Positions 33,013-43,525 are shown, counted from the stretch's first letter. The stretch is 64,000 nt of DNA from Psammoneis japonica (GCA_008632985.1 QPGO01000103.1:62001-126000); one strand, 5' to 3'. Made by a program: numbers and translations. Notes: generated from the sequence alone by a model not told the origin.

Positions 33013-35399
33013 GCTGAACCAGCATGGCATACCTCGGCGTGGCAGTTGAAGCGATCGCCATGTTTGTGCGGTAAAGAAGTACCATAGTTACGTCACCCCA
33101 AGGAACGAGTGCGATAGTAAGTGTTCAAGTAGTTTTACATGTTTCTAAATAGATGTTCTTTTGTAATTTCTCTCGAACGATCGAACTCAGCTCCTTTCAC
33201 TATCATGCTTCGTAAACCACAACGAGACGCTATGCTGATAGTGAACGAAGCATCATTCAACATTCCCATGCTGTGCTTTTTCCCTCTTATATTTTGCTGC
33301 TTCGCCGGTAGAAATAGAAAACACCTTCTCATACCTGTAACCCATTGGGTTTGCGATGTGAAAAGCGATGCAAAGAGCTGGTTGCACCACTGGTGGAGCC
33401 ATTTCATTTTTGTTGGTCCCTCTGCTTTGAACACCTTGTGGCTCATCTTTCTGCCAAAACAACACAATGACAACAGAGAGCAGCAGGTGTTTTTCCCACC
33501 ATCTCCCACTGTTCTTTTTCAGAGATGGTCCATTGTTGCTCCATATCATCAACTCATGCACTCATTTGGTCTGAGAGACCTGCAAAGCTTTCCAGATGTG
33601 GTGGGCCACACTGGTGCCATGGCTTGAGCGACAGAAAATTTCAGCTGCAGCCAACCAGCCTTGCACGTTGTTGACAAATCATGTCAAGAAGTCATCATGC
33701 ACAAAAAAGATGAGTTTCCTTGTTTTGCATTTGTGCGCTGTGGATGCAGCTCAGCTGATTGTGGAACAATTTGAAAACAAGAGCTCAGGTGTGTCATGCT
33801 TTCTGTTGAAAAGTGTCCCAAAACTTTCCGCCAAGAGCTGGGGTGAGTCTTTTGCAGGGTTTGTGCTCCTCTGCACAAACCAATCAAGTGCCAAGCATTT
33901 TTTTTGAAACACTGCACAAGGGCAAGTTTGATGAGACAATGACTGCTCCCTTGCCACTCTTGACAACTGCAGCGCTGATGGCAAGGCCCACAGATGACAG
34001 CAGCTGCAAATCAAAGAGCAATGGAGAGCAAAGAATCAATGTGCCAAGCACTCTTTCTCTGGGGCTGTTCCCAAGAAAAACTCTTCCAAGCTGTCAGACA
34101 GAAGGTGACAAGTCAATGCTGACAGATGATGCCAACTCAAGCCAGAAGGAATGCAAAAACAGCCACAAGTTTGGTCAGCAACAATGACAGTGATGGTGAG
34201 TGCAACAGCAATGCACCTGCAGAAGTGGCCCACACATCAAAAAAAAAAGATGGGCAGCCAGCATTTTCTGTGACAGCATTTGTCATTCAGCGAGGGTGCA
34301 CAAAATGCCCAGGTGTGGTGTGTGTTTTTCATTTTGGAAAAAAGGTCACTGAGCTGTGACAAATTTGTGTGAAAACTTGGACATGTTTGTGCCATGTCTG
34401 CATTGTCATGAGAGCATTGATTGTTGAGCCAAACAGCAGCAAATCAGTCCAAATGGCTGAGGCATTGTCCTGTCAATGCACAATGGTGTGTGTGACACCA
34501 GGGATTGTCAGGGAATCTTTTTCTGGGTTTTGTCATGCACTGCGCACATGAAAGATGTGCCACAACTCTCTGCAGAACAACAGCCATACATGAGCACATT
34601 GCCAAAGAACAACAGAGCTGTCCACAAGAGTGACACAGTTTTTGTTGTTTGTTGTCATGCTGCAGCAACATCAGCTGGGTGTGGGGGCACAGTGCACAGG
34701 AGGCAGAAGTTCATCATCAAGTTCTTGTCAAAGCTGTGTGACTGCCAGTGTGGTGGCAAAAACTTGCCAGAAGCAAAATTTGTGAAAGCCATGGCAGATG
34801 CCAAGAAAGAGGGAGATGGCAGAGATGGCAGTGCAAAACATGATGAACTTGATGACTGTGACAATGCCTGCCATGCAGAGGCTGGGCAGAAAGAGAGTTT
34901 GACACAGGTCTTTTTGGATGAGATGGTGACAGCTTGCTGCTCCACCAAGGAGCCATGCTGCCATCTGGCAGTGACAGCACACCAAGGGAGTCTGACAACT
35001 GTGACTGGACACAGCCAGAAGAGCCAGAGTTTGGCAATGTTGACAACCCTTGTTGGCATGGCTTGCACATCCACACCAAGCAGCCAGAGCTTGAGAGCTC
35101 TGGCTCAAAGCACTGAAAATGGTGCCACTCTCTGTCAACAGGCATGGCTCCTGTGCCAGTTGACACAAGTGGTGAACAGGCAACCAACAACTGACATTTC
35201 TGCTGAGCAGGTTGGGAAGTTGGAGAACAAAACAAGGAAGAGATGGGGACCCTCCCAGGCAGGCACAAAGGGGCAGTGCTGGCAGCAGAAATGAAAAAAA
35301 GCACCCTGGCAGTGGAGGCAGCAGCTTGTTGCTGGAAAAGCTGACCTGGTTCTTTTAACATCAATGTGCCAAAAAAGCCAGGGATGACAAATGAGTGCA

Positions 35400-35880
35400 T
35401 CCAAAACAAGGGTGCTCTGTTTTTCTTTCTGCTGCTTTTGCCCATTTGCTCAGTGGAGGAATTGGGTGTGGAAAGGACCCAAGGAAGATGCTTTGCATCA
35501 AAGCTGTGAAATTTTCCAGTGTGCATGCTGAGAGAGATTTGGATCTTGGCAACATGCACCAGCACAATTTCAAGTCAGCAGCTGCTGAAGATGATGGAGT
35601 TCAAGATCAAAGCAACAGAGCAATCTGCTGCTAATGGATGGGAGGGACAGACTGCAACAAAGATGCAATTGATGCCATGACTCACACCCAAATCAAGCAA
35701 GTTCACAAATTGTGTCCCAATGATGCAGCACCCCAATGCGGCAAGCCTGGCCACCATTCTGCCCACAAGTGTGACATGATTTGTGGTGCCCTGGCGCACA
35801 ATGTCAATGTTTTGTTGTTGAGTGCACTGAGGTGGATTTGTGCAGTGACAAAATGTTGAGCAGGCAAAAGTCAATGTTGC
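35400..35880 (+). mobile_element. Decayed piggyBac-like transposase fragment
   Basis: AMTHTQIKQVHKLCPND..GHHSAHKCDMICGALAHNVN..VDLCSDK resembles in spacing the piggyBac segment M-x3-F-x2-I..N-D..K..(ls)iDE; recognised from memory, not by search. Confidence 0.45.
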
Positions 35881-41886: not shown

Positions 41887-42294
41887 CACANNNNNNNNNN
41901 NNNNNNNNNNNNNNNNNNNNNNNNNNNNNNNNNNNNNNNNNNNNNNNNNNNNNNNNNNNNNNNNNNNNNNNNNNNNNNNNNNNNNNNNNNNNNNNNNNNN
42001 NNNNNNNNNNNNNNNNNNNNNNNNNNNNNNNNNNNNNNNNNNNNNNNNNNNNNNNNNNNNNNNNNNNNNNNNNNNNNNNNNNNNNNNNNNNNNNNNNNNN
42101 NNNNNNNNNNNNNNNNNNNNNNNNNNNNNNNNNNNNNNNNNNNNNNNNNNNNNNNNNNNNNNNNNNNNNNNNNNNNNNNNNNNNNNNNNNNNNNNNNNNN
42201 NNNNNNNNNNNNNNNNNNNNNNNNNNNNNNNNNNNNNNNNNNNNNNNNNNNNNNNNNNNNNNNNNNNNNNNCACACACACACACACACACACAC
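41846..42294. repeat. (CA)n microsatellite flanking an N gap (41891-42271)
   Basis: CA repeats on both sides of the N run. Confidence 0.95.
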
Positions 42295-43525
42295 CAAAAG
42301 CCCCTGTCAGTGCTGTTGACAACCTGGCAAGGATCCAGCCAGTGAGCACAGCGCAGCTTGTGCAGCCATCTTTGATGAGAGACAGCGGCAGAGTGCAGAG
42401 ACAGCAGAAACACTGGCAGCAATGCAGCAGGCAAAGATGCGGTGACTCCACCCACAAGAAGTCAGATGGTTTTTGATGAAATTCATGCAGAGGATGAGGA
42501 GGAGGGTTGGCTCTGCAGCCCTCAAGCTTTGCCCTCAGCAGAGTCAATCTTGGGTTGGCGACTTTGTCCCTTGGAAGTTGACAGTGTGCGCTGTCCTTGC
42601 AGCTTCAGCAGCAGCAGCTGAAGCTCCAGACCTCAGAGCAGTGATCAGGGTGCGCACAATTTCATCTCAGCTGGCTGTTTGACATTGTTCATGCGCACCA
42701 ATCCATGCAGCAAGACAACCTGCCACTCATCCTTTTTTCTTCTTTGGAAGAAATGAGGGGAGATGCTGCTCAAGAATCGAGCAGTGCTGCAGCTTGCTGG
42801 ATGTTGTCACCAAGTGCAACCCATGGTTGGCTGCCAAAAGAAGGGCGGTGTGGGGTGGGGCGGGGCTGGGGAGAGACCCCTGCTCTGCCATTGGACCGCG
42901 CTGCACAGACACCTGGTGGGAGCAACCAAACATTTCAGTGGGGTTGTCTTTTTCACAAAAAAATGTTGCGTTGAAAGATGACCTGCCACCCACTGGCTGC
43001 TGGTTGGATTTCATGTGTGCAGCTGGCAACCAAAGCTCTGTGGCAAAGAGAGGTGCCGTGTGTGCCGAGCCCCTGATGATGGAAAAATCCACCACCCAGC
43101 TGAAAAAACTCAGCCCAACTCACCTTGTCTTGGGGCGGAATGGCCACAGTTTGCAAAAGAAGAAATGGAACGAACCTTGGCTAAAAGGAAATTATGAGAA
43201 AGCATGCACAGGTAGAATCATGAGCCAAACCCGACAGTGTCATCACCGATGAAACACATCAGCCTGACATGATCAGATGGACGGCAAAGCCAGACTTCCG
43301 TGTGACGATCAGACCGTCAGAATTCGCTCGGTCCGTCCGTCCGCGGCGCTCGCTCGTGTTTCGGTCTCGAGCCTCTCGACGATGAGCGACGCGAGCGCAA
43401 GAAAAGAGCAACGCGAACACCACAGCAGAACAACAACACGACTTGGTACTTCTATTTGATCATGAATGTAACATGTCTGCGATTTGCGACTACACAACAC
43501 TATTTATCAATTATAACGTCGAGTC

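Follow-up and report, generated by a model that had tools for sequence, protein, structure and literature searches.

What removes nearly every TpA step, and most CpG steps with it, from certain parts of a genome while the DNA beside them keeps an ordinary composition? This question is raised by a stretch of 64,000 nucleotides from the diatom Psammoneis japonica (GCA_008632985.1 QPGO01000103.1:62001-126000; hereafter the window), in which four islands (Table 1) are almost free of TA, poor in CG and very rich in TG and CA. A preliminary description of the window had ascribed the islands to a repeat-targeted hypermutation that erases TpA as well as CpG. Our analysis suggests that both steps were once present in the islands and were converted to TG and CA by two separate transition processes, the first of which resembles a process recently measured in the alga Bigelowiella natans.

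Loss of TpA and CpG in four islands

To describe composition, we used the ratio of observed to expected dinucleotide counts (o/e), calculated in sliding 1-kb windows and for each island. When the islands are pooled (18,773 non-N bases), they hold 47 TA, 178 CG, 2166 TG and 2172 CA, with a TG o/e of 1.86 and a CA o/e of 1.84. The flanks (44,845 bases) hold 1720 TA (o/e 0.56), 2635 CG (1.03), 3145 TG (1.16) and 3312 CA (1.15). Flank frequencies would lead one to expect 720 TA and 1,103 CG in the islands, and the binomial log10 p of the shortfall is -243 for TA and -273 for CG. The GC content of the islands, at 0.485, is close to that of the flanks, at 0.478. The counts thus agree with the preliminary description, according to which TA is almost absent, CG rare, TG and CA dominant and GC not obviously reduced in all four islands, while the flanks are normal; the loss is indeed confined to the islands.

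The islands are long and sharply bounded. In the flanks, TA-free gaps (n=1,687) have a mean of 26 bp and a maximum of 237 bp, and in the islands they extend up to 1,188, 1,462 and 2,396 bp, where the longest spans an N gap and the 1,462-bp gap is a single run in island 4. No TA-free run of more than 240 bp was found in the window outside the four islands, and the island borders are resolved to a few tens of bases. The 1-kb windows at 24001-29001 (n=6) and 34001-42001 (n=9) have TA ratios of 0.00-0.07 and TG and CA ratios of 1.62-2.59 each; islands 1 and 4 are shorter than a three-window rule of the B. natans type allows. TA-free runs alone should not be scored as islands, as a 234-bp TA-free stretch just outside island 3 (43232-43439) has no TG/CA excess, is very rich in CG and represents normal CpG-dense DNA. 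Within island 3, a (CA)n/(TG)n microsatellite (Table 1) is of a kind that can be expected as a by-product of so dense an array of TG and CA steps.

The two losses do not have the same footprint. TA is at 0.00-0.06 throughout, margins and short islands included, and is depleted more fully than CG, whereas CG is at 0.09-0.11 in the cores and at 0.48 (23470-23980), 0.28 (29001-29985) and 0.26 (42272-43190) at the margins. In the two short islands, CG loss is also weaker than in the cores.

This sequence does not rest on a single assembly. The preliminary description had allowed that raw reads might fail to support it; contigs of a public DNA run (X1), however, carry the same TA- and CG-erased sequence, which is thus not an assembly artefact. 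X1 contains 96% of the sampled words from 32400-41800, and its contigs lie at ~70x word depth. One of them (6,536 bp) covers 22440-28972 with 8 letters other than those of the window, and a second (4,989 bp) covers 32908-37895 with 4 other letters and crosses the left border of island 3. The run may come from the strain of the assembly, yet it is not identical to the assembly. Among the best-supported differences between the window and X1, three of the four listed in islands are TA/TG (28805), CG/TG (24933) and CG/CA (28748). As these belong to the predicted classes, they hint, from a very small number, that both processes are recent or ongoing.

Direction and manner of the changes

Island 3 contains a decayed Ty1/copia-type pol remnant (Table 1), which allows the changes to be polarised. 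As only distant relatives of the remnant were found, we took columns in which the homologues share a consensus residue and read the island codon at each. In a first set of columns (152 proteins, with a minimum of 15 per column and a consensus of 60% or more), all nine Tyr columns carry TGC (4), CAT (4) or CAC (1), and the other residues are retained in 128 of 186. In a second set (269 proteins, at least 30 per column), none of the 13 Tyr columns is retained in the island, where TGC (5), CAT (5), CAC (2) and TTT (1) are found instead. As a control we used L001, a near-intact relative with an open frame of 933 aa, found on a metagenome contig of 4,060 bp, in which Tyr is retained in 8 of 13 columns, as TAC or TAT. 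Arg is retained in 5 of 12 columns in the island (four AGR, one CGG), five others being CAA, CAG, CAC or TGG, and in 12 of 14 in L001, eight of them as CGN. The preliminary description had considered that intact relatives might be just as poor in TA; L001 is of ordinary composition (TA 0.55, CG 0.94, GC content 0.465). As the Tyr columns and part of the Arg columns are converted in the island and most are kept in L001, TA and CG were once there and have been converted, and the loss of TA is mutational.

Three internal repeats (Table 1), which are easier to find after purine/pyrimidine recoding, show how individual sites have fared. In their 245 columns there are 46 transitions, 14 TG↔CA double swaps, one difference of TA versus TG/CA and two of CG versus TG/CA. 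The double swaps between repeat copies indicate that ancestral sites were resolved to TG or to CA independently, after the copies had separated. Along the islands, TG and CA are about equal in number (137:166, 766:746, 1017:972, 97:90 and 145:157), and their order is unclustered (runs-test z -2.1 to +2.2; lag autocorrelation ~0). This speaks for numerous separate hits, made in place on double-stranded DNA without processivity, and argues against strand-specific editing before integration. Strand-processive editing was considered as a candidate and is rejected by the ~1:1 ratio of TG to CA, the runs test and the autocorrelation.

A simple mass balance gives the same end point for both losses. 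When 95% of the TA and 88% of the CG in flank sequence are converted 50:50 to TG and CA, the model predicts a TG of 1.89 and a CA of 1.84, where 1.86 and 1.84 are observed, and over all 16 dinucleotides it correlates with the islands at r 0.97, compared with 0.67 for the unmutated flank. The model assumes ancestors that were like the flanks; with L001 as the substrate, it gives TG 1.90 and CA 1.76. The earlier claim that TA and CG both end as TG/CA is thus upheld. As TG and CA together cover the TA and CG that were lost, the model suggests that little room is left for transversion products.

The neighbours of the surviving steps differ between the two losses. Relative to the flanks, TA survival by 3' neighbour is 0.066 for TAA, 0.034 for TAG, 0.012 for TAT and 0.007 for TAC (p ~1e-6), while CG survival is 0.126 for CGC/GCG and 0.042-0.064 for the others. 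The source trinucleotides that are able to regenerate TA are about equally common, and the differences therefore reflect rates of removal. We take the different neighbour rules, together with the different spatial footprints, as evidence that TA loss and CG loss are two processes. The proposal of a second, island-restricted A:T→G:C process at TpA, made in the preliminary description, is supported by these results and by the replacement of Tyr by TGC, CAT and CAC. CpG methylation by itself cannot account for the pattern, as had been argued.

Table 1 Features of the window. Coordinates are counted from its first letter; GC is GC content, and ratios are o/e values.
Feature	Coordinates	Strand	Description
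Island 1	6940..8280	.	Unclassified origin; TA 0.06, CG 0.30, TG 1.92, CA 1.71; GC 0.497
Island 2	23470..29985	.	Unclassified origin; TA 0.05, CG 0.18, TG 1.86, CA 1.87; GC 0.476
Island 3	33345..43190	.	Contains the Copia-type pol remnant; TA 0.03, CG 0.12, TG 1.97, CA 1.94; GC 0.469
Island 4	47870..49320	.	Unclassified origin; TA 0.00, CG 0.26, TG 1.65, CA 1.70; GC 0.494
Decayed Ty1/copia-type pol remnant	37656..39001	-	Reverse transcriptase end with YVDD-type motif, RNase H, C-terminus; in three frames
Diverged direct repeat, island 1	7344..8154 (copies 7344-7450, 8042-8154)	+	87.6% purine/pyrimidine identity; 3 TG↔CA double swaps, 1 TA-versus-TG/CA and 2 CG-versus-TG/CA differences
Diverged direct repeat, island 2	24697..25486 (copies 24697-24774, 25410-25486)	+	91% purine/pyrimidine identity; 8 TG↔CA double swaps in 88 columns
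Diverged tandem repeat	29173..29352 (copies 29173-29226, 29299-29352)	+	3 TG↔CA double swaps in 55 columns
(CA)n/(TG)n microsatellite	41839..42300	.	Encloses a 381-N assembly gap (41891-42271); X1 reads appear cut there

Nature of the islands and their host

The pol remnant is the one part of the islands to which an origin can be assigned. Its open reading frame (ORF) at 37903-38814(-) gave 1,046 phmmer hits at E<=1e-3 (best E 2.1e-23), and tblastn with 25 long homologues gave coverage that was confined to the interval listed in Table 1. Many of the homologues contain PF07727, and two are named Ty1/copia, both from Cylindrotheca. A second ORF, at 38591-38968(-), carries the YVDD-type motif and has a weak match to RVT_2 (E 0.11). 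Copia-type reverse transcriptase and RNase H are thus both present. No long terminal repeats (LTRs), integrase or gag were found for the remnant, no long direct repeats that could form an LTR pair were seen in nucleotide or in purine/pyrimidine space, and the N-terminal 628 residues of the L001 polyprotein have no match inside island 3 at E<0.1. The Ty1/copia remnant is thus truncated. It has 33-62% identity to relatives in a representative protein library; in a search of 5.8 billion proteins, identity was 29-39% over most of the query and 53-63% over its last third or less; and L001, which came from a metagenome scan, has 63% in the best segment and 26-63% overall.

The remainder of the island DNA matched little. 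Among 150 island ORFs of at least 70 aa, none has a Pfam match at E<=0.01, those of island 1 included, and among 60 of them, chosen mostly as the longer ones and examined at E<=1, the RVT_2 match was the only meaningful one. For a viral origin of islands 2 and 4, three of the 150 ORFs were tried, and none of the three has a relative in viral_contigs. Between islands, blastn found nothing beyond two of the short internal repeats, to which the purine/pyrimidine-recoded search added one. At a likeness of at least 85%, a threshold past which older copies may have diverged, X1 gives single-copy depth (~70) over 23326-28629 and 33271-35259 and multi-copy depth over 28630-29955 (285-341) and 35260-40563 (140-540). 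Old inserted and decayed DNA is a fair description of the islands, where "repeat" is demonstrated for a part only. Their age is suggested by the transversions between internal repeats and by the loss at conserved columns.

The host can be judged from the flanks. A long frame at 19720-22377(-) encodes a P-type Ca2+-ATPase (type 2C), whose best relative has 82% identity and whose named diatom relatives have 60-67%. The best named relatives are all diatoms (among them Nitzschia inconspicua 67%, Cylindrotheca fusiformis 65%, Seminavis robusta 63% and Thalassiosira pseudonana 63%), and the window is thus from a diatom and not from B. natans.

Several other observations were made in the flanks. The region 30172-32982 is present in X1 in two forms at about equal depth (e.g. 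63/130 at many places in 30354-30744), and the islands and 22000-23325 are present there in one form only, at ~70x. A second run, X2, resembles transcript contigs; it was compared with the flanks only and is thus silent on island expression. One of its transcript-like contigs matches the divergent form of 30172-32982 (61 other letters in 678 bases), so this region either has a close paralogue or is present as two strongly diverged alleles. X2 contigs also skip 87 bases at 22411-22499, with CT..AC ends (GT..AG on the minus strand), and several stretches of 78-87 bases within 30849-32243, which look like short spliceosomal introns of the flanking genes. Direct repeats at 51004-51071/51958-52025 and 45224-45274/45384-45434 (84-87% identity) lie in DNA of normal composition outside the islands, and may stem from the duplication of gene segments or belong to a tandem family.

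Proposed explanation, its rivals and its significance

With moderate confidence, we propose that the islands are old silenced inserted DNA in the diatom nuclear genome that has been driven near an end state by two context-specific transition processes. The island DNA would be at least partly Ty1/copia retrotransposon, and both processes would act in place on double-stranded DNA. The first, which is the more complete, would change TpA to TpG or CpA, i.e. A→G on either strand, probably through deamination of adenine to inosine in DNA. It would require a 5' T and prefer a 3' pyrimidine (C > T > G > A), it may be targeted to island chromatin or foreign status rather than to repetition itself, and it would be of the same kind as the process measured directly in B. 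natans. The second, weaker at the margins, would change CpG to TpG/CpA, presumably by deamination of 5-methylcytosine in CpG-methylated transposon DNA; the accessible texts of two papers report CpG methylation of diatom LTR elements (PMC2806351; PMC9998398). Both processes would halt at TG/CA, which is the substrate of neither, and GC content would barely shift because the first gains G:C and the second loses G:C.

The comparison with B. natans is central here. According to the accessible text of a preprint (Mettrop et al. 2026; bioRxiv 10.64898/2026.01.13.699255), in mutation-accumulation lines of this alga (n=15), 231 of 302 nuclear mutations fell in two integrated viral regions; of these 231, 230 were A→G or T→C, all at TpA, and the rate was ~6e-7 per site per generation, in some lines only. 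The B. natans genome has 124 clusters of TpA-poor, CpA+TpG-rich 1-kb windows, reverse transcriptase and DDE domains are enriched among TpA-poor genes, and an ADAT2-like deaminase is the authors' candidate. Neither CpG loss nor diatoms are mentioned in that text, and no wider sequence context is given. The statement in the preliminary description that no account of such a process was known thus does not hold, as the TpA process as such already has a description, given in a preprint on a rhizarian alga.

As far as that text goes, the two cases are alike in several ways. In both, TpA becomes TpG/CpA on both strands, the surrounding DNA is normal, the footprint consists of runs of TpA-poor, CpA+TpG-rich 1-kb windows, some targets bear reverse transcriptase, and single-copy DNA can be a target. 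The affected DNA is integrated viral DNA in B. natans, and here the part of it that can be recognised as mobile is the pol remnant. For the diatom, the change from TpA to TpG/CpA is supported, through an indirect polarisation, by the Tyr columns, the mass balance and one TA/TG difference between the window and X1. They also differ. B. natans is a rhizarian (chlorarachniophyte) and the host here is a diatom, i.e. a stramenopile; its nucleocytoplasmic large DNA virus region has a Rho of 0.45, while the diatom islands are near saturation, with TA o/e of 0.00-0.06; its rate has been measured, while the diatom process is known from sequence alone; and the 3'-neighbour order seen in the islands is unreported in the accessible text. 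The near-pure AT→GC spectrum of B. natans is also not found, as CG is at 0.12-0.30 in the islands and Arg CGN is replaced by CAA, CAG, CAC or TGG, so a second GC→AT process at CpG appears to be superimposed.

Several points that weigh against the proposed explanation need to be considered. The evidence is a sequence footprint; as TA is its own reverse complement, such a footprint does not separate A→G from T→C on the other strand. The supporting reads all belong to one run, from one study, and the neighbour effects rest on 46 residual TA. Erasure of CpG in the islands has no counterpart in the accessible text on B. natans. Only 37656-39001 is provably transposon-derived, and with no Pfam-significant match among the 150 ORFs and single-copy depth over large parts of islands 2 and 3, the earlier label "repeat-targeted", or restricted to transposable elements, is not established. 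Conserved columns other than Tyr and Arg are retained in 152 of 236 cases in the island, compared with 217 of 253 in L001, and the internal repeats hold 20 transversions in their 245 columns; both indicate that the islands are old, which makes a slower process over a long time conceivable. Finally, the mass balance leaves a residue. Model GC content is 0.463, compared with 0.485 observed, and GpC is predicted at 1.06 (1.21 with context-weighted strand choice) and observed at 1.35. GpC is at 1.35-1.40 in all four islands, where L001 has 0.92 and the flanks have 1.01; in each island, AGC/GCT reaches 1.5-2.1 times the model value, all four NGC trinucleotides are raised and NAC is slightly lower. 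Secondary A→G at ApC was considered as a cause of this excess and rejected, as the drop in NAC is too small. Either the inserted DNA began with a different composition, or there is a further AT→GC component.

Of the alternatives, the one that survives best places the lesion on thymine. A dioxygenase or other modifier could act on the T of TpA in silenced DNA (giving e.g. 5-hydroxymethyluracil or 5-formyluracil), the product of which mispairs with G and yields T→C, and CpG loss could be increased by enzymes of this class that act on 5-methylcytosine. Thymine modification at TpA exists in other protists, 5-formyluracil is mutagenic, and the sequence data fit this equally well, as the change TA→CA reads as TA→TG on the opposite strand. 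Nonetheless, the different neighbour preferences of TA and CG disfavour a single pyrimidine-directed enzyme, and the authors of the B. natans work favour adenine deamination, in the accessible text as a proposal and without a test. We consider this alternative unlikely.

Passive decay, in which the ordinary context-dependent bias of methylated compact chromatin acts for a long time with no dedicated enzyme, is rather improbable in our judgement. The age of the islands speaks for it, and most island sequence no longer matches any family. With TA at 0.03-0.06 beside flanks at 0.56 and with sharp borders, however, TA must be removed many times faster than it is created; TA is also removed more fully than CG, which is the step presumed to be methylated, and in B. 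natans, as far as accessible, the same signature represents a 1000-fold rise in rate in real time.

We give little credence to error-prone patch repair by a polymerase eta-like enzyme (Pol-eta) after T:G mismatches at deaminated CpG, which the preliminary description had named first among its candidate mechanisms. TA is a known hotspot of Pol-eta, and such repair would connect the loss of TA with methylated CpG, where TA could be lost in the course of repair that restores CpG. AA, the second WA motif, is however not depleted (1.26 in the islands and 1.17 in the flanks), and transitions are all that is seen in 12 of 13 Tyr columns; the match of TG and CA to the lost TA and CG leaves little room for the A→T or A→C products of such a polymerase. 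Margins and short islands, which have the weakest CG loss, moreover show no lesser loss of TA, and 230 of the 231 B. natans events are transitions, with no CpG involvement mentioned in the accessible text. The other earlier candidate, an adenine deaminase, remains a reasonable one on our analysis.

Editing of retroelement RNA or cDNA by an ADAR- or APOBEC-like enzyme, such that the element was inserted already mutated, is very improbable: one island part is a retrotransposon, but such editing is strand-specific while TG and CA are equal and unclustered here, the same ancestral site is TG in one repeat copy and CA in the other, and islands without a retroelement signal carry the same pattern. 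Equally hard to credit are native avoidance of TA and CG (e.g. by selection against UpA- and CpG-sensing nucleases, both steps being avoided in many RNA viruses) and sequencing or assembly error at modified bases, which can give systematic miscalls, since Tyr codons are replaced and not avoided, the pol frame is split in three, TA and CG are normal in the related L001, and X1 contigs have the same sequence with few differences.

Known systems other than that of B. natans resemble the proposed two-process decay in part. Fungal repeat-induced point mutation (RIP) likewise is a regional, defence-like transition hypermutation of mobile DNA that stops at borders, but its C→T changes fall mostly on CpA, so that TpA arises and GC drops. 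Its signature of TpA excess and a fall in GC is absent from the islands, where TpA is lost and GC is not lower than in the flanks. RIP also acts on duplicated sequence only; the islands include DNA of both single-copy and multi-copy depth, and older copies may have diverged too far to be counted. For diatom DNMT4, a relative of fungal RID, no function is known according to the accessible text of PMC9998398. CpG methylation decay of the vertebrate type, which converts CpG to TpG/CpA, would account for the CG half of the pattern but cannot remove TA, whose loss exceeds that of CG. A case of CpG decay without TA loss, in contrast to the islands, was seen in the first 500 bases of an unrelated metagenome contig, L002:1-500 (GC 0.45, compared with 0.34-0.39 in the remainder), where CG is at 0.27, TG at 1.58 and CA at 1.55 and TA is normal at 0.89. 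APOBEC3 and ADAR hyperediting likewise produces deaminase-made transitions with a neighbour preference, but acts on single-stranded cDNA or RNA and leaves strand-pure runs, while the islands are strand-symmetric and unclustered. In Escherichia coli, very-short-patch repair, with its scarcity of CTAG, is directed at T:G and converts words that contain TA into CA/TG words; it is genome-wide, of modest effect and limited to a 5-base motif, a bacterial repair side effect and not regional as the islands are. For ADAR, a preference for a 5' U is cited in the accessible text of bioRxiv 10.64898/2026.01.13.699255.

No report of TA loss in diatom transposons was found in the literature searched, where a search for TpA and diatom was unspecific, and a term search for TpA or TA loss gave no occurrence in the accessible texts of PMC2806351, PMC9998398 and PMC6604790, which deal with diatom retrotransposons, DNA methyltransferases and mutation rate. 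What is new here is thus a second host far removed from the first, a loss that comes close to saturation, the inclusion of a retrotransposon in the targets and a coupled loss of CpG, both losses ending as TG/CA. The strand symmetry, with no runs, and the order of neighbours (C > T > G > A) are new as well.

We tentatively raise the further possibility that diatoms have a chromatin-targeted adenine-editing defence, homologous to that of B. natans and part of an ancient immunity of the SAR group (stramenopiles, alveolates and rhizarians), which together with CpG methylation drives mobile DNA to a dead TG/CA state. That C or T is preferred on the 3' side would suggest a TadA/ADAT2-like enzyme; the natural tRNA substrate of TadA reads U-A-C. 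If the process is of the kind seen in B. natans, TA-free runs that are rich in TG and CA are a simple marker for old mobile or viral DNA that homology search misses, and transposon annotation and dating are biased in such genomes, as the absence of Pfam-significant island ORFs illustrates. The preferred neighbours and the coupled loss of CpG give leads on the mechanism that can be tested. On the same condition, targeted A→G hypermutation of invading DNA would be no peculiarity of a single alga; it would extend to diatoms, a large group that is open to experiment, where it could run to completion, and a second lineage would be available for the search for the enzyme.

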